The translations under genes and the position numbers were made by a program. Below are positions 48,901 to 59,923 of a DNA stretch of 64,000 bases, in pieces. The stretch spans positions 1 to 64,000 of the forward strand of contig NW_024055720.1 of assembly GCF_902713615.1 (NCBI RefSeq), read 5' to 3'. How positions within the stretch are numbered: the stretch's first letter is position 1; each line of letters begins with the position of its first letter. Under the pieces are notes generated by a model. It was not told where the DNA came from and made no database searches. It saw nothing but the letters and a program-made list of their open reading frames with translations. The DNA is from Scyliorhinus canicula (lineage: Eukaryota).

Positions 48901-50130
48901 TTCGATCTCGCGTTTGCCGTGCGTGATGACTGTTCCCAAATACATCACTTTACTTTCCAATATTTGGGCCTTTTTCGGGTTAACTTTACAGCCAATTTCA
49001 GTTAAGAGTTCCAGGAGTTCGGCCAGAAGCGAAATGTGCTCTGCCTTTGTGTCTGTCTGCAGTAGTAGGTCGTCTACATACTGTACCAGACATTCGGGTC
49101 GGGAAAATTTCTCTAATCCACTTGCCAGCTGTCGGTGGAAAATGGAGGGTGAATTGTGGAATCCTTGTGGGAGGCATGTCCACGTGTACTTCTGAGTTTT
49201 AAAAGTGAATGCGAATTTGTATTGGCACGCTTTTGCCAATGGTATGGACCAGAATCCATTACTGATGTCCAATACCGTGAAGTACTTGGCGTTGAGACCC
49301 TGCTTGAGCATGGTCTCGGGACTAGTAGCTACCGTTGGGGCTACTGCGGGGGTTACTTTGTTGAGTTCCCGATAATCGATGGTCAGACGCCATGATCCAT
49401 CGGGCTTCCTCACTGGCCAAATAGGGGCATTGTTGGTGGAGGCTACCGTTCTCAGTACACCTTGGTCCAACAAGCTGCCTATAACCTTTTCTATTTCCAC
49501 CTCTGCCTCGAGGGGAAATCTATACTGCTTTTGCGGTCGGGGGTCCTGTCCGGTAACATGAACTTGTCCAGTCATTCTGCCACAGTCATGATGGTGACTT
49601 GCAAATGCTGTCCTGTGTTTGTTTAGTAGGGCCTTAATTTGTCGGTCGGTGTGGAGCGTAGTCAGGTCGAATGAGTACTCTCCCACTGCGCTAATCCGAT
49701 TAGCGTAGTCTCCTACTGTGAGGGTGGCTGGGGCTCTGTCGGATCTCGCCATTCGCCAGACACACTGGTTCACTGGGTCGAACGACAAGCTGTGTGCGTT
49801 CATGAAATCGATCCCCAGGATGTGTTCTGCTGTCCGGGGAAGATTTACTAAAACTACGGGGTGCCTTGTGCTAATGTTCCCTAGCTGGATCGCTACGGGT
49901 GCTGTGATATGTCCCTGCTGCGAGTGTCCGGTGAACCCGCTAAGTGTGATGGTGGAGGTGGTCGGCCACGTGTCTGCGTGTGCCGTGGTTGTGGAGTTAA
50001 TGGTGGTGCGGGATCCTCCTGTGTCCCACAGTAACTCTATGGGCTTCCCTTTGACTTTTGCCGTGACTACGGGCCTCCCTGATGAGTCCCATAGTGTGTC
50101 ACAGACCCAAGTGGGGGAGCCCGAACACCG
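45904..50130 (-). CDS. pol: Pol (PR-RT-tether-RNase H-IN), in frame with gag after a UGA
   Basis: LLWDTGG protease (50017-50025); LPQGFHNSP and YVDD in RT; degenerate RH; second RH with YVDGSS / AELAA / YSDS / KADALA; HHCC, D-D-E and GPY integrase motifs. Confidence 0.95.
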   Translation of the reverse strand, partial: RCSGSPTWVCDTLWDSSGRPVVTAKVKGKPIELLWDTGGSRTTINSTTTAHADTWPTTSTITLSGFTGHSQQGHITAPVAIQLGNISTRHPVVLVNLPRTAEHILGIDFMNAHSLSFDPVNQCVWRMARSDRAPATLTVGDYANRISAVGEYSFDLTTLHTDRQIKALLNKHRTAFASHHHDCGRMTGQVHVTGQDPRPQKQYRFPLEAEVEIEKVIGSLLDQGVLRTVASTNNAPIWPVRKPDGSWRLTIDYRELNKVTPAVAPTVATSPETMLKQGLNAKYFTVLDISNGFWSIPLAKACQYKFAFTFKTQKYTWTCLPQGFHNSPSIFHRQLASGLEKFSRPECLVQYVDDLLLQTDTKAEHISLLAELLELLTEIGCKVNPKKAQILESKVMYLGTVITHGKREIEFKRIDSIVKLPLPQNVSALRSFLGLVGYCRNHIDGFATKAAPLSDLLKKGAPWEWLPQHTEAVEELKRALSAAPALLVPDQLSPYAIEVASTDLTLSAVLLQERHEQLRPVAYASRLLDPVEQGFSACERHLLAVFWAVQYFSYITGLNPITILTEHTPTQLLLDGRLKDGSVSQIRAARWTLLLQGRDITVKRTRTHTYLADNLQYPGQPHDCEIVAPLHNTGPFLAKTPPRKIGNPKQSPQPTDTCGPLRIYVDGSSTVLNGERITGCGIYVEDAQGRALEEIALKLPGHLGAQAAELAAIAYIVDHPDSFPSPADIYSDSLYVCNSLTDFLPLWRTRGFVSADGKPLPSAPLLQHILEKAKDRTFGIIKVCSHHRSSPPGNVKADALAKAGSRRGHLWTPPASAPASAPVSAVQVSQTDIKDLVAAQKQDGDLREVFKGNFVPAYEHFKHALTTHEGVIIKDRLYVVPQQDRNQMIALFHDGHGHQGIDATTRHLRQLCWWPNLRNDVTHYIENCLICAQNNPERYSKKAQLRHTRPVNGPWTNLQIDFIGPLPPCRNGYKYVLVVIDTFTKWVEAFPSRTNTAKTAAKILTHHIFTRWGLPRSIDSDQGSHFTGRVMRNVLTIFGIKQNFHIAYHPQSSGIVERMNRTLKTTLRKMVQENNSTWDSVLPFALMFIRNTVSTSTGYTPHTLMTGRPMKGTEFLLGLDMTSPEVTALTHEKAVKDLVETVRSAQLAAAVQLGKRRQQRTACFNNTVHTTEFQVGQQVMLSVYNPSSFLAPKYSGPYSISDKISPSVYRIKYPNGKTAWFHINQLKAYGTQANHAHHVLLDAAEHFTPPTRNTFPPSPSQTSSSTDSPTTPPTDHYRPRPDTPTSCHSRDSRTDTDSEDSDSTQPYSPHCTNYDPDSSDPMEVTYLKNPEPPPDPDYPDNTLDATQWHRDNSYRLVRNDESDPRSHNSKIACLIHTRVWDPGEQDDTVSDSRHGNPFVTLFTEAESK

Positions 50131-51879
50131 TCAGTTCGTCTCGTCCACATTGGTGGGTCCTGACTGTACTGCTACATTGTGGATGGGTTTTGCCTTACTG
50201 CGGTTCAGAGTGCCTGTCTGCTGGCCTCTCTGAGATCGCTGGGGTGCATTACACTCTTTTGCCCAATGCCCTAACTGTCCACAGTTATAGCATTCCTGTC
50301 CTTTCTGTTGAGGGCTGCTCTTGCCTTCATTTACCCATGCGGGCTTCTGGTGCTCTCTGACTGCTTGGATATCTGCAGCAGCCTGAGCCTCTTCTGGGGA
50401 TCTAACCTTTCCTTTTGCCTGAAGCGATTGCTCCCAAGCGCGGGACAATCTTTTCAGGACCCATTTTTCGTTATGGGCCTCTTCTGAGGGGTCGTAATTA
50501 TTGCAAGCGCTCTGTCCTGCTTCTGTTGCGTGTGAGATAATTGTGCGCGTCCACTTAACCATGTTTTCGCGGGTTAAATGCGCTCTATCTAGCTGTCCGA
50601 AAACTGCGCTGAAGTGAATCCACAGCCTTCCTGCGAATGCTGTGGGGTGTTCGGATCTCTTCTGCCTGCACTTATTCAAGCCTTCTACGGGGTCACCTCT
50701 ATTGTACCCGATGGCATCTAAAATGGCAGTGTGCATCTCCTCTAGGCTGCCTCCTGCCACGTTTTGTGGGTCGGGGAGGGCTGCCACTACACTCTGGTCT
50801 AAGCTCAGCACGGTGAGCTTAACCTGCTCTCTCTCATCCAGGCCGTACATGGTAGCCTGCTGTTTTACTTTAGCGAAAAACTGGTGGGGGTCTGCGGTGG
50901 GGAGGAACGGAGTGATCTTTTCACAAGCGTCCCTTAGCTGGGTTACTGTTAAAGGGGTGGTGTAAGTTATGTCTGGGGCGCCTTCTGATTCGGCTTTCCT
51001 CTGTGTGGTTACGGGATTCATGGGTGCGGTTATGATCTGAGCTGGGGGGGGTTGGGGTGCCTGTCGTTTCTGCTGAGCTGCTGGCGCACATGTTCCCTGA
51101 ACATAACGCTGCGCTGTCTCGCTTAATTCCTGCCAATCTGGGGCGTTTTCCCCATCTAACTGAGCTCCAAAGGTGCTTTGGAAGCCATTCTGCACCGAAA
51201 GCAGAGATTGCAGTTCCGCAATCTGTTTCCTGCATTTCGCGTGGTCAACTGTGCTTTGTCTTTGTTCGGTCGTTGCAGCGTGGAGTGCTCTCAAAGCTGC
51301 TTTGAGATCGGAACATTGCCTCTGCAATGCCTCCACCTGCTTTTCCGATTCCTGTCTTATCAGAACGGCACGTTGCACGTCCTGATAGGCTTTCTCATAC
51401 TGGGTCTGGGAACTGTTCAGATGAGCTAGACAAGACTGGTGAGCCCTCTTGGCATCATCCACCTCTCTACCCTTCTCTGCCAACTTCCCTTTTAATTCCA
51501 GGTTTTCTTTCTCGATGTCCCTGACATCGACCTTACTCATTCGGTTCCTTTCCTCTAAATCTGCCCGGAGCGTCCTGATGACCTCCTCTGCGCCTCGCAA
51601 CTGTGCCAAGCAGGACACAATCGCCATCGGCTTGCGTGCTTTACCTAAACTCTTTTTGTGTATCTGAGAGAGGTTCTCCCACCAAGTATGACCTATACTC
51701 CCGGGACCTGTCTCCTCATTTGCACAAAACTCTTTCCAAAGGGGCCATCCCTTTCCTTGTAAATATTTGCGGAGTTCCAGCTCCCACGTGGGACACTGGC
51801 CTACTCTGCTACTGCTGCTGGTCGCTGCGACCACAAACTTTGCTGGATCCATCAGACGTTCCATTGCCTGCATGGCCAT
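50131..51879 (-). CDS. gag: Gag, 582 aa
   Basis: Long central coiled-coil-like region, capsid-like region and one CCHC knuckle CYNCGQLGHWAKEC. Confidence 0.9.
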   Translation of the reverse strand: MAMQAMERLMDPAKFVVAATSSSSRVGQCPTWELELRKYLQGKGWPLWKEFCANEETGPGSIGHTWWENLSQIHKKSLGKARKPMAIVSCLAQLRGAEEVIRTLRADLEERNRMSKVDVRDIEKENLELKGKLAEKGREVDDAKRAHQSCLAHLNSSQTQYEKAYQDVQRAVLIRQESEKQVEALQRQCSDLKAALRALHAATTEQRQSTVDHAKCRKQIAELQSLLSVQNGFQSTFGAQLDGENAPDWQELSETAQRYVQGTCAPAAQQKRQAPQPPPAQIITAPMNPVTTQRKAESEGAPDITYTTPLTVTQLRDACEKITPFLPTADPHQFFAKVKQQATMYGLDEREQVKLTVLSLDQSVVAALPDPQNVAGGSLEEMHTAILDAIGYNRGDPVEGLNKCRQKRSEHPTAFAGRLWIHFSAVFGQLDRAHLTRENMVKWTRTIISHATEAGQSACNNYDPSEEAHNEKWVLKRLSRAWEQSLQAKGKVRSPEEAQAAADIQAVREHQKPAWVNEGKSSPQQKGQECYNCGQLGHWAKECNAPQRSQRGQQTGTLNRSKAKPIHNVAVQSGPTNVDETN

Positions 51880-52174
51880 TTCCTCTGACTCTCTTTTTAT
51901 AATTTGGAACAGGGGGTTGCTGGGGTGGTGTTTCGTAAAAAGGGTACGGCTTACGCTATTTTCCGATCACAAAACTACCGAAAGTTTGTCGCAACAAAAA
52001 GCTTTCAGTTTTACCTTACAGCCCTGTTAGTACGCATGCACTAAACACACTTCCGAATTTCGCTTATTATTTTGAACACCTTGAATACTTGTGATCTCTT
52101 TCTTTCTCTGCAATTTGGAGTTCTGATTCAAATTTCAGGGTCCTGGACACTGTGGTGTTTCCACTTACAACAGG

Positions 52175-52192
52175 ATCCCACCAGAGTCGCCA
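52175..52192 (-). promoter_or_regulatory. Primer-binding site, tRNA-Arg(UCU)-like
   Basis: TGGCGACTCTGGTGGGAT lies 5 nt after the 5' LTR and is complementary to a tRNA 3' end ..UCCCACCAGAGUCGCCA (vertebrate Arg-UCU as recalled). Confidence 0.75.
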
Positions 52193-52197
52193 CTAAA

Positions 52198-53146
52198 TGT
52201 TGCACGTTTTACTATGGGCGTAAAACGCGTTTATTGGAGTGTATTAACACGCCTCCGAGTTCGACGTGTGCTTAACACTGCTAGGCTCTGTTCTATGTAA
52301 TTATTTAGCTCTGGAGTCGCCAGCTGCCGTATAGGCAACGTCACAAGTATTCCAAGGTCAAGTTCAAAGTAATAAAGACAATACACCGATTAGTCAAGTT
52401 CAAACGATCAATATTTATTATACAGTTAATAATAAATACTCATGCACACACTAAGAGACTAAGCTACAACTAAACATAAGCAAACAGAATACTTATCTAA
52501 CAGGAACAGGCAAGGTCAGAGAACGAGGCCTTCGTCCTGGTTTTGTCTGCAGCCTTCAGCAAGCGTTCTGGCACTTGGGAGTCTAGCGGGCTTGGATCGC
52601 GTAGCGAGCGTTGAACTTACGGTTTCGGCGGCTGGTGCTCAACGGCTGGAGTCAGGATACCAGGTGTCAGTCGGGGCCGGAGCACAGGTTTAACAGACCG
52701 GACAACACGAGGTCCCTATCTTTTATAGGGGTTCCGTTGTCCTTCCCTCTTCTCGGGCGGGCTCTACCTATTGGATCAATTTCTTATCGATACTGGATTA
52801 ATTCCCCAATGCGAGGGGGTCTCCGTGATGGAGGGGGCGTTTCTTATGTCCTTTTGTTTGGAGGTTTCTGGTGCCTCGATGTCTGGGTCTTGATTGGAAT
52901 GTGTCCATTCAGAACCAAATGTATCTATTGTGTGGGTGTTCAAGTCTGATGGCCTCATTAGCATGCAAAGCGTTTTGCCATTTGCACCTAGCTAAGGTCT
53001 TTTCACCTGAGCCCAAACTGGTTTCTGCTGCTGCAGAATGCAAACTGCTCTTTGCAGACTGCTGTTCTGGCTGAACTGTCTGTTTCTCAGCAGCCTTCCA
53101 TTTTAGTTTGGCTCAGTGTCCATTTTGCGTGGCCAGCATGGCTACA
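52198..53146 (-). repeat. 5' LTR
   Basis: Only 2 differences from the 3' LTR seen by eye; TATAAAA on the minus strand at 52721-52727. Confidence 0.95.
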
Positions 53147-56645: not shown

Positions 56646-57080
56646 TTGGTATGTTGCCTCCCAGGTGCAAGGGTACGTGATGTCTCGGATCGTGTTTTCC
56701 GGGTCCTTAAGGGGGAGGGGGAGCAGCCCCAAGTCGTAGTCCACATTGGCACTAACGACATAGGTAGGAAAGGGGACAAGGATGTCAGGCAGGCCTTTAG
56801 GGAGCTAGGATGGAAGCTCAGAGCGAGAACAAACAGAGTTGTTATCTCTGGGTTGTTGCCCGTGCCACGTGATAGTGAGATGAGGAATAGGGAGAGAGAG
56901 CAATTAAACACGTGGCTACAGGGATGGTGCAGGCGGGAGGGATTCAGATTTCTGGATAACTGGGGCTCTTTCTGGGGAAGGTGGGACCTCTATAGACAGG
57001 ATGGTCTACATCTGAACCTGAGGGGCACCAATATCCTGGGGGGGAGATTTGTTAGTGCTCTTTGGGGGGGTTTAAACTAA
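56646..57080 (+). CDS. CR1 ORF1 C-terminal SGNH esterase domain (partial)
   Basis: CLPGA..VHIGTND..DGLHLN motifs. Confidence 0.85.
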   Translation: MVCCLPGARVRDVSDRVFRVLKGEGEQPQVVVHIGTNDIGRKGDKDVRQAFRELGWKLRARTNRVVISGLLPVPRDSEMRNREREQLNTWLQGWCRREGFRFLDNWGSFWGRWDLYRQDGLHLNLRGTNILGGRFVSALWGGLN

Positions 57081-59923
57081 TTCAGCAGGGGCATGGGAAC
57101 CTGGATTGTAGTTTTAGGGTACGGGAGATTGAGAGTATAGAGGTCAGGAGCACAGATTTGACTTCGCAGGAGGGTGCCAGTGTTCAGGTAGGTGGTTTGA
57201 AGTGTGTCTACTTCAATGCCAGGAGTATACGAAATAAGGTAGGGGAACTGGCAGCATGGGTTGGTACCTGGGACTTCGATGTTGTGGCCATTTCAGAGAC
57301 ATGGATAGAGCAGGGACAGGAATGGTTGTTGCAGGTTCCGGGGTTTAGGTGTTTTAGTAAGCTCAGAGAAGGGGGCAAAAGAGGGGGAGGTGTGGCGCTG
57401 CTAGTCAAGGACAGTATTACGGTGGCGGAAAGGATGCTAGATGGGGACTCTTCTTCTGAGGTAGTATGGGCTGAGGTTAGAAACAGGAAAGGAGAGGTCA
57501 CCCTGTTGGGAGTTTTCTATAGGCCACCTAATAGTTCTAGGGATGTAGAGGAAAGGATGGCGAAGATGATTCTGGAAAAGAGCGAAAGTAACAGGGTAGT
57601 TGTTATGGGAGACTTTAACTTTCCAAATATTGACTGGAAAAGATATAGTTCGAGTACATTAGATGGGTCATTCTTTGTACAATGTGTGCAGGAGGGTTTC
57701 CTGACACAATATGTTGACAGGCCAACAAGAGGCGAGGCCACATTGGATTTGGTTTTGGCTAATGAACCAGGCCAGGTGTTAGATCTGGAGGTAGGTGAGC
57801 ACTTTGGAAACAGTGACCACAATTCGGTGACCTTTACGTTAGTGATGGAAAGGGATAAGTATACCCCGCAGGGCAAGAGTTATAGCTGGGGGAAGGGCAA
57901 TTATGATGCCATTAGACATGACTTAGGATGTGTTGGTTGGAGAAGTAGGCTGCAAGGGTTGGGCACACTGGATATGTGGAGCTTGTTCAAGGAACAGCTA
58001 TTGCATGTTCTTGATAAGTACGTACCAGTCAGGCAGGGAGGAAGGGGTCGAGCGAGGGAACCGTGGTTTACCAAAGAAGTGGAATCTCTTGTTAAGAGGA
58101 AGAAGGAGGCCTATGTGAAGATGAGGCGTGAAGTTTCAGTTGGGGCGCTTGATATTTACAAGGAAGCGAGGAAGGATCTAAAGAGAGAGCTGAGACGAGC
58201 AAGGAGGGGACATGAGAAGTCTTTGGCAGGTAGGATCAAGGAAAACCCAAAAGCTTTCTATAGGTATGTCAGGAATAAAAGAATGACTAGGGTAAGAGTA
58301 GGGCCAGTCAAGGACAGTGGTGGGAAGTTGTGTGTGGAGGCTGAGGAGATAAGCGAGATACTAAATGAATACTTTTCGTCAGTATTCACTCAAGAAAAAG
58401 ATAATATTGTGGAGGAGAATGCTGAGACCCAGGCTACTAGAATAGATGGCATTGAGGTGCGTAGGGAAGAAGTGTTGGCAATTCTGGACAAGGTGAAAAT
58501 AGATAAGTCCCCGGGGCCGGATGGGATTTATCCTAGGATTCTCTGGGAAGCCAGGGAAGAGATTGCTGAGCCTTTGGCTTTGATTTTTAGGTCATCATTG
58601 GCTACAGGAATAGTGCCAGAGGACTGGAGGATAGCAAATGTGGTCCCTTTGTTCAAGAAGGGGAGTAGAGATAACCCCGGTAACTATAGGCCGGTGAGCC
58701 TCACGTCTGTGGTGGGTAAAGTCTTGGAGAGGATTATAAAAGATACGATTTATAATCATCTAGATAGGAATAATATGATTAGGGACAGTCAGCATGGTTT
58801 TGTGAAGGGTAGGTCATGCCTCACAAACCTTATCGAGTTCTTTGAGAAGGTGACTGAACAGGTAGATGAGGGTAGAGCAGTTGATGTGGTGTATATGGAT
58901 TTCAGTAAAGCGTTTGATAAGGTTCCCCACGGTCGTCTATTGCAGAAAATACGGAGGCTGGGGATTGAGGGTGATTTAGAGATGTGGATCAGAAATTGGC
59001 TAGTTGAAAGAAAACAGAGAGTGGTAGTTGATGGGAAATGTTCAGAATGGAGTTCAGTTACGAGTGGCGTACCACAAGGATCTGTTCTGGGGCCGTTGCT
59101 GTTTGTCATTTTTATAAATGACCTAGAGGAGGGCGCAGAAGGATGGGTGAGTAAATTTGCAGACGACACTAAAGTCGGTGGAGTTGTAGACAGTGCGGAA
59201 GGATGTTGCAGGTTACAGAGGGACATAGATAAGCTGCAGAGCTGGGCTGAGAGGTGGCAAATGGAGTTTAATGTGGAGAAGTGTGAGGTGATTCACTTTG
59301 GAAAGAATAACAGAAATGCGGAATATTTGGCTAATGGTAAAATTCTTGGTAGTGTGGATGAGCAGAGGGATCTCGGTGTCCATGTACATAGATCCCTGAA
59401 AGTTGCCACCCAGGTTGATAGGGTTGTGAAGAAGGCCTATGGTGTGTTGGCCTTTATTGGTAGAGGGATTGAGTTCCGGAGCCATGAGGTCATGTTGCAG
59501 TTGTACAAAACTCTAGTACGGCCGCATTTGGAGTATTGCGTCCAGTTCTGGTCGCCTCATTATAGGAAGGACGTGGAAGCTTTGGAACGGGTGCAGAGGA
59601 GATTTACCAGGATGTTGCCTGGTATGGAGGGAAAATCTTATGAGGAAAGGCTGATGGACTTGAGGTTGTTTTCGTTAGAGAGAAGAAGGTTAAGAGGTGA
59701 CTTAATAGAGGCATACAAAATGATCAGAGGGTTAGATAGGGTGGACAGCGAGAGCCTTCTCCCGCGGATGGAGGTGGCTAGCACGAGGGGACATAGCCTT
59801 AAATTGAGGGGTAATAGATATAGGACAGAGGTCAGAGGTGGGTTTTTTTACGCAAAGAGTGGTGAGGCCGTGGAATGCCCTACCTGCAACAGTAGTGAAC
59901 ATGCCAACATTGAGGGCATTTAA
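57062..59923 (+). CDS. CR1 ORF2 (APE endonuclease plus RT), 953 aa, frameshifted near the C-terminus
   Basis: YFNARS, ISETW, GDFNFP, SDHN endonuclease motifs; PGPDG, GVPQGS, FADD RT motifs; T-run slip at ~59845. Confidence 0.93.
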   Translation: MGGFKLIQQGHGNLDCSFRVREIESIEVRSTDLTSQEGASVQVGGLKCVYFNARSIRNKVGELAAWVGTWDFDVVAISETWIEQGQEWLLQVPGFRCFSKLREGGKRGGGVALLVKDSITVAERMLDGDSSSEVVWAEVRNRKGEVTLLGVFYRPPNSSRDVEERMAKMILEKSESNRVVVMGDFNFPNIDWKRYSSSTLDGSFFVQCVQEGFLTQYVDRPTRGEATLDLVLANEPGQVLDLEVGEHFGNSDHNSVTFTLVMERDKYTPQGKSYSWGKGNYDAIRHDLGCVGWRSRLQGLGTLDMWSLFKEQLLHVLDKYVPVRQGGRGRAREPWFTKEVESLVKRKKEAYVKMRREVSVGALDIYKEARKDLKRELRRARRGHEKSLAGRIKENPKAFYRYVRNKRMTRVRVGPVKDSGGKLCVEAEEISEILNEYFSSVFTQEKDNIVEENAETQATRIDGIEVRREEVLAILDKVKIDKSPGPDGIYPRILWEAREEIAEPLALIFRSSLATGIVPEDWRIANVVPLFKKGSRDNPGNYRPVSLTSVVGKVLERIIKDTIYNHLDRNNMIRDSQHGFVKGRSCLTNLIEFFEKVTEQVDEGRAVDVVYMDFSKAFDKVPHGRLLQKIRRLGIEGDLEMWIRNWLVERKQRVVVDGKCSEWSSVTSGVPQGSVLGPLLFVIFINDLEEGAEGWVSKFADDTKVGGVVDSAEGCCRLQRDIDKLQSWAERWQMEFNVEKCEVIHFGKNNRNAEYLANGKILGSVDEQRDLGVHVHRSLKVATQVDRVVKKAYGVLAFIGRGIEFRSHEVMLQLYKTLVRPHLEYCVQFWSPHYRKDVEALERVQRRFTRMLPGMEGKSYEERLMDLRLFSLERRRLRGDLIEAYKMIRGLDRVDSESLLPRMEVASTRGHSLKLRGNRYRTEVRGGFFYAKSGEAVECPTCNSSEHANIEGI

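Follow-up and report, generated by a model that had tools for sequence, protein, structure and literature searches.

Suppression of the stop codon that terminates gag yields Gag-Pol in Moloney murine leukemia virus (MoMLV), where a UAG-G (type III) context is followed 8 nt downstream by an H-type pseudoknot. An in-frame UGA between gag and pro, at which readthrough is presumed, is described for the fish and toad retroviruses SSSV (UGAAGA), ZFERV (UGACGA) and RMEV (UGAAGU), and the same 2026 review regards readthrough as unverified for the epsilonretroviruses and the RNA signals of fish retroviruses as unclear (PMC13517186, section 4.1.2). Type II readthrough is associated with UGACGG or UGACUA; in the accessible parts of PMC13517186 and PMC3159437, UGA-CGG is reported together with a stem from position +12 and with synonymous conservation for Venezuelan equine encephalitis virus (VEEV) and for segment 9 of Colorado tick fever virus (CTFV), the readthrough of VEEV in cells being 7.6% with the stem and 0.8% without it (PMC3159437). 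The Ty1/copia element Tca2 of Candida albicans also carries gag-UGA-pol in one frame and has its pol expressed from gag-pol RNA (PMC2194720, accessible part). The present analysis concerns a junction of this kind in an env-less endogenous retrovirus (ERV) of 9,850 bp, located on the minus strand (43297-53146) of a 64,000-nt stretch of the dogfish Scyliorhinus canicula (contig NW_024055720.1, hereafter the window). In this element gag and pol are separated by a single in-frame TGA, and comparative evidence makes it likely that a Gag-Pol of ~1,991 residues is made by UGA readthrough.

The in-frame stop of the window element carries the type II hexamer UGACGG, and the first 10 nt of the CTFV context UGA CGG UGU UGG (UGA CGG UGU U) are the same in the shark element (PMC13517186, accessible part). 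VEEV and CTFV are, however, unrelated RNA viruses with tested stems of 12-17 bp, whereas the outer stem of the shark element, of 5+2 bp, is predicted and the element shows one clear conservation peak only. SSSV, ZFERV and RMEV are described as distant relatives of the epsilonretroviruses, and neither the exact type II hexamer nor a structure downstream is listed for any of the three. MoMLV belongs to another retroviral clade, and its UAG-G context does not occur in the shark family, TAG being found in 0 of 2322 genome copies. The first-pass annotation of the window had called UGA an unusual choice for a retroelement; the UGA is real, but its rarity was overstated, as SSSV, ZFERV and RMEV (PMC13517186) and Tca2 (PMC2194720, accessible part) precede it. 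Thus, the strategy itself is known, its mechanism is of the textbook kind and the surprise is modest; the new detail lies in the exact type II signal, the alternation of CGG and CUA among sister families and the conservation map. No account of the junction of this family was found in the literature consulted, which included the accessible parts of PMC7947760, PMC8922424, PMC9040795, PMC10435555, PMC12193657, PMC10699275, bioRxiv 2024.03.25.586437 and bioRxiv 2025.03.14.642691, papers whose supplements could hold the family.

A fixed TGA at the end of gag

The junction reads AAC TGA CGG TGT at 50125-50136 on the minus strand, which had been left unstated earlier, with the putative readthrough codon at 50131..50133. 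All features of the element given below lie on the same strand. Counted from its ATG at 51879, Gag comprises 582 residues (50134..51879, within an open frame of 50131-51966), and the pol frame continues in the phase of gag for 1408 codons from stop to stop (45904..50130). The first in-frame ATG of pol, at 49803, is codon +110; it lies 327 nt past the stop and beyond the protease DTG (codon +36), and leaves 1299 residues. Gag, one residue at the stop and Pol add up to 1991 residues, and the figures of the first-pass annotation (one frame from gag to pol, 327 nt, an open reading frame (ORF) of 1299 residues and a Gag-Pol of ~1,990) were all confirmed.

Genome-wide, an exact 33-nt junction pattern matched copies with TGA (1105), TGG (2) and AGA (1) and none with T[ACT]N, while the reversed-pattern control gave 0 matches. 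A wider 35-nt pattern that includes the older subfamilies matched 2322 copies, 2288 of which (~98.5%) have TGA; the 34 other codons are scattered (TGG 12, AGA 5, CGA 4, TGC 4, TAA 3, GGA 2 and GTA, CAA, TTA and TCA 1 each). Both patterns require the downstream context, and copies chosen through Gag were therefore added. Among 30 older copies selected solely by Gag similarity to a Scyliorhinus torazame protein, TGA is present in 28, TAA in 1 and AGA in 1; TGACGG is found in 23, from which the 5 remaining TGA copies depart by changes of CpG type. In a set of 40 near-full-length copies (20 young ones obtained through the junction pattern and 20 older ones through Gag), TGA-CGG is the most frequent pair in all five identity groups, which range from 77% to 98% at the nucleotide level, and it persists at a synonymous divergence (dS) of 1.2-1.5 to the oldest group. 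The sole Gag relatives found are four proteins of S. torazame (72-76% identical); one is truncated, and the other three stop in the alignment column where the Gag of the element stops. UGA-C is thus fixed across copies and subfamilies, and a private nonsense mutation, the alternative named in the first-pass annotation, is ruled out. The TGA is a family trait; in this large family of env-less ERVs it marks a fixed terminus of gag.

This family is large and recently active. The single 35-nt pattern gives at least 2322 copies, and a search with a related Gag piece gave 13,244 candidates at first look; the long terminal repeat (LTR) pairs are 97.8-100% identical in 19 of 20 young copies, and the gag and pol frames are both open in 10 of the 20 young copies sampled. 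Gag-only retroviral relatives such as BHIKHARI exist (bioRxiv 2024.03.25.586437, accessible part), and the TGA could by analogy be a nonsense mutation in a Gag-only, non-autonomous lineage that depends for its mobility on a partner bearing a sense codon there. The probability of this is close to nil, as Pol is intact in the window copy and open together with gag in half of the young sample, the ratio of nonsynonymous to synonymous divergence (dN/dS) of Pol is 0.05-0.08 over dS above 1, and no sense-codon subfamily has been amplified. A pipeline that rejects ERVs because of an in-frame stop, or takes the first ATG as the start of pol, loses the protease and can overlook the intactness of a large, recently active family in a shark genome.

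Three copies ~32.6 kb apart on C16 (88.56-88.62 Mb) share TGG at the junction; they represent a tandem duplication and not an amplified subfamily.

Sister families in the same genome were examined through a search with a distant protease, which gave 30 loci. Six were dropped as the match starts too late to cover the junction, 2 belong to the main family and 22 were examined, their Pol pieces being 26-58% identical to the window element. In 8 of the 22 loci an in-frame TGA stands exactly 36 codons ahead of the protease motif; it is followed by C in 7 of the 8 (CTA 5, CTG 1, CAG 1; the remaining locus has TTG), and in 2 further loci the TGA is off by one base. Both classical type II contexts, UGACGG and UGACUA, are thus found in sister lineages.

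Sequence context, coding behind the stop and the route to Pol

Codons +1 to +9 (50104..50130), which hold the downstream part of the UGA-CGG context and a spacer, are synonymously frozen across the subfamilies. Among 21 copies of less than 90% identity, the synonymous difference in these codons is 4%, as compared with 37% overall, which places them at rank 8 of 1867 windows, and the peak of synonymous conservation 3' of the stop is confined to ~30 nt. All 8 degenerate codons are invariant across the groups, for which the class rates give a chance of 0.001, the young groups of this test having been chosen by means of a part of this same stretch. As a candidate signal, the primary context of CGG and frozen codons appears well supported by these comparisons.

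Further downstream, RNAalifold predicts an extended stem-loop from +12 to +93 (50041..50122; outer stem 12-20/85-93, inner stem 30-35/68-73) on 22 as well as on 30 sequences, with the stem at +12 closing at +93, an inner stem of six pairs and the stop unpaired. In the predicted +12 stem, 98.7% of the cells are paired, as compared with 32-47% when the stem is slid, and several of the changes involve G-U. A stem from +12 is suggested by these predictions, made with folding tools that do not predict pseudoknots; a search of Rfam over the element gave no match. The stop, the 27 frozen bases and the predicted stem make up a defined candidate cassette with evolutionary support from ~2,300 copies.

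The stretch from the stop to the first Met (109 codons) has a dN/dS of 0.04-0.15 in 13 of 13 comparisons, beside values of 0.06-0.12 for gag and 0.05-0.08 for the part that spans reverse transcriptase (RT), the RNase H and the integrase. The residues of codons +10 to +15 are kept through synonymous changes. A canonical splice cannot deliver these codons because the first AG past the stop is met only at +49 to +58 (one copy per group, the oldest partly masked), and an acceptor upstream of the stop provides no way around since the stop would remain in frame. By these ratios, the stretch before the first pol ATG is under purifying selection at the protein level, without another evident translation route. 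Among the splice joints listed for the RNA data, none falls within 49750-50450 in 4 of 4 runs. RNA reads and contigs span the junction unbroken, the depth at the stop being ~39 and 8 reads in the two raw RNA runs.

Foamy viruses make Pol from a spliced mRNA with its own ATG, and their Gag lacks a zinc knuckle. A separate pol message of the foamy type, or one produced by an internal promoter or by internal or non-AUG initiation, would reduce the TGA to an ordinary stop; this is unlikely for the shark family. In its favour are the foamy-virus structures among the integrase and RT matches, the cryptic promoter held by the Tca2 junction (PMC2194720, accessible part) and an RNA depth that is low for the detection of joints, their absence covering the listed ones only. 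The shark element, in contrast to foamy viruses, has a CCHC knuckle and no listed joint, and it offers no in-frame ATG before codon +110, which lies past the protease active site. The conservation as protein of codons that precede every AG, and the stop that any upstream acceptor would leave in frame, also stand against such a message, which would moreover not preserve the frame, the identity of the stop and the 36-codon spacing in distant families.

Recoding of the UGA at the RNA level or as a special codon was considered as well. Adenosine-to-inosine editing, which would turn the UGA into a Trp codon and use the downstream stem as its substrate, is very unlikely; a predicted double-stranded region does adjoin the stop and TGG is the most frequent of the 34 genomic variants (12), but TGG is also expected as a transition, no variant at 50131-50133 is among the 40 variants listed from RNA at ~39 and 8 reads, the consensus fold leaves the stop unpaired, and the CGG and CUA contexts are translational signals. 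A UGA followed by a stem resembles the redefinition elements of selenoprotein genes, and this layout, together with a conserved non-coding block after pol, would suit a UGA that encodes selenocysteine. Such decoding is nevertheless extremely improbable, with no selenocysteine insertion sequence (SECIS) found along the element by Rfam at E values as high as 5, an empty result of a simple SECIS-core scan in the window copy and 11 others, and no amplified variant with a Cys codon (TGC in 4 of 2322).

Readthrough of the UGA, as proposed in the first-pass annotation, is backed by the fixed UGA-C, the protein-level selection behind the stop and the frozen 3' context, and appears likely on these grounds. 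Genomic unspliced RNA would serve as the pol mRNA, from which most ribosomes would yield Gag, while a few percent would insert an amino acid at the UGA through a near-cognate tRNA and so produce Gag-Pol. The near-cognate tRNAs at UGA are those for Trp, Cys or Arg. Readthrough would be raised by the CGG triplet together with the 27 frozen nt, and probably by the predicted stem 8 nt downstream (+12), an effect that has been measured in VEEV and CTFV for an identical arrangement of UGA-CGG and a stem at +12. The rate of leakage would set the ratio of Gag to Gag-Pol.

Several observations weigh against readthrough or against parts of the proposed signal. All the evidence for it is comparative, and a yeast reporter showed no readthrough at the similar-looking UGA junction of Tca2 (PMC2194720, accessible part). 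Five other invariant runs of at least 8 codons occur among 1434, which corresponds to an empirical chance of ~1.3% for the run behind the stop. In the predicted stem, one pair is changed on both sides (11 sequences), probably through a single event, and 263 of 500 shuffles equal this count; a competing local hairpin, spanning +6 to +38, is an equally good fit, without covariation. The fold of the downstream sequence, a check proposed in the first-pass annotation, is weak alone, single sequences giving z of -0.8 to -1.84, with 7 of 200 shuffles as stable in the best case. The TGA-CTA families show no stable fold (z -0.64 to +1.06 in 9 loci, which are decayed copies). Finally, at 12 of the 22 distant loci the homologous position is taken by a sense codon (TGT in one), and 11 of these 12 share an in-frame TAA 8 codons later.

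In this subgroup of 11 decayed loci, mostly on small contigs, the shared stop reads TAA-CTG, and one further locus bears both stops. The loci are probably duplicates of a dead copy; alternatively, they may reflect a shifted stop.

Affinities of the element

The Pol frame encodes, in order, an aspartic protease, RT (YVDD), a tether of RNase H-like type, RNase H, integrase (HHCC) and a low-complexity tail; the tether plus a second RNase H is an arrangement of the Retroviridae type (Pfam RT_RNaseH 465-596 and RNase_H 662-805). Gag is devoid of Gly2, and thus of a myristoylation glycine; its N-terminal half is coiled-coil-like by inspection and its middle capsid-like, and it has one CCHC zinc knuckle (Pfam zf-CCHC, E 1e-7). 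Retrotrans_gag-like features were scored at 0.93 with a low shared count and are taken as a lead only.

The best Pol relatives are elements of frog, coelacanth and turtle (36-45% identity), with which the shark element also groups in an RT tree of 35 rows (snakehead retrovirus, SnRV, not among them) with support of 95/87. By a hand count of 142 RT positions against the supplement alignment of PMC7947760 (accessible part), the element matches the retrovirus SnRV at ~84 (~59%), one lokiretrovirus at 62 (44%) and simian foamy virus (SFV) at 58 (41%). A lokiretroviral identity, raised by the 'NYNRIN-like' labels on the best Pol matches, was rejected on the RT motifs: those of lokiretroviruses read RCPFGY...AEFNIFL, whereas the shark element and SnRV have LPQGFH..P.IFH (supplement of PMC7947760, accessible part). 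Lokiretroviruses also carry a Mononegavirales-like Env, in contrast to the env-less shark element, and S. torazame is unmarked in Table S2 of the accessible part of PMC7947760. A catshark ERV of a foamy-like clade is reported in the accessible part of PMC10699275.

The element is thus SnRV-like by its RT motif, as far as a hand count goes. It resembles SnRV and chicken Ovex1, for which amber suppression is presumed, in having gag and pol in one frame with a single stop and in its Gag, which is non-myristoylated and coiled-coil and has one zinc finger (PMC2717909, accessible part). It differs from SnRV in its stop, which is UGA-CGG in the shark element and UAG-GGC in SnRV (PMC13517186), in the lack of env and of the 3' ORF layout of SnRV, a small membrane ORF being present instead, and in the thousands of young copies of the shark family. 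Loss of env is common in ERVs. The absence of env counts against the label of a virus and not against an SnRV-like lineage.

SnRV-like ERVs have been reported in the elephant shark (CmiERV lineage I; PMC4422223) and in the coelacanth (PMC4977317), the junction not being described in the accessible parts of these papers. In a coelacanth gene model, the Gag-like part continues into the protease, with Gln-Gly located 36 codons ahead of the protease motif; a UAG-G junction like that of SnRV would agree with this. It is about as likely as not that a single retroviral clade has seen a swap between readthrough classes II and III, with UGA-CGG and a stimulatory stem in the shark family, UGA-CUA in its sisters and UAG-G in SnRV. 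If such a swap took place, the shark family, with its thousands of natural variants, would provide the first mapped type II UGA readthrough element of a retrovirus.

Other features of the element and the window

Between pol and the 3' LTR env is absent: in this 1.66-kb region the longest frame with an ATG has 117 codons and no Pfam hit, and no 3' ATG frame longer than 294 residues was found in the scanned region of any of the 40 fetched copies. The 117-residue ORF (44577..44930), which occupies the position of env, encodes a hydrophobic N-terminus, an NVS sequon and one transmembrane stretch (~57-79) followed by RLRKWKRR. It occurs in 19 of the 20 young copies and in 12 of the 20 older ones, with a dN/dS of 0.12-0.26 where computable, and its best Atlas score is 0.88. 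Its layout recalls the sORF2/FAST-like proteins of env-less insect retrotransposons, from which it differs by a signal-peptide-like start and the lack of a myristoylation glycine; the accessible part of that account names no vertebrate ERV (bioRxiv 2025.03.14.642691). This conserved ORF is possibly of more interest than the stop.

The block between pol and the small ORF (45017-45489) is 74-80% identical in the oldest subfamily, which matches the level of the coding region, and has a high RNA depth and no Rfam match. It is possibly an export or packaging element, or a promoter. The longest invariant synonymous run in gag-pol, of 18 codons, lies in the integrase tail (residues ~1267-1303 after the stop, window ~46220-46330), where an overlapping RNA signal is possible.

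The element is bounded by LTRs of 949 bp, the 5' LTR (52198..53146) having TG...CA ends and 2 mismatches to the 3' LTR (43297..44245), which is preceded by a polypurine tract (44246..44256). The primer of SnRV is tRNA-Arg. In the window element, the primer-binding site that follows the 5' LTR (52175..52192) complements the 3' end of tRNA-Arg(UCU), and the complement of this site terminates an ARAGORN tRNA-Arg(tct) gene in the genome (1 clean hit among 13 pattern loci). In the older subfamilies, the sequence after TGGCGACTC near the 5' end differs from the tRNA-Arg site of the young family, which could possibly reflect a change of primer or a motif internal to the LTR. The target-site duplication is of 4 bp (GGTC), and the window copy is inserted in a repeat resembling a short interspersed nuclear element (SINE). 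A preference for SINE targets was considered and dropped, as other copies have differing flanks. Searches of viral contigs and of phages gave no match. Outside the element, the window also contains a frame of 955 codons of the long interspersed nuclear element (LINE) type, with endonuclease and RT domains, at 57056-59923 on the plus strand.

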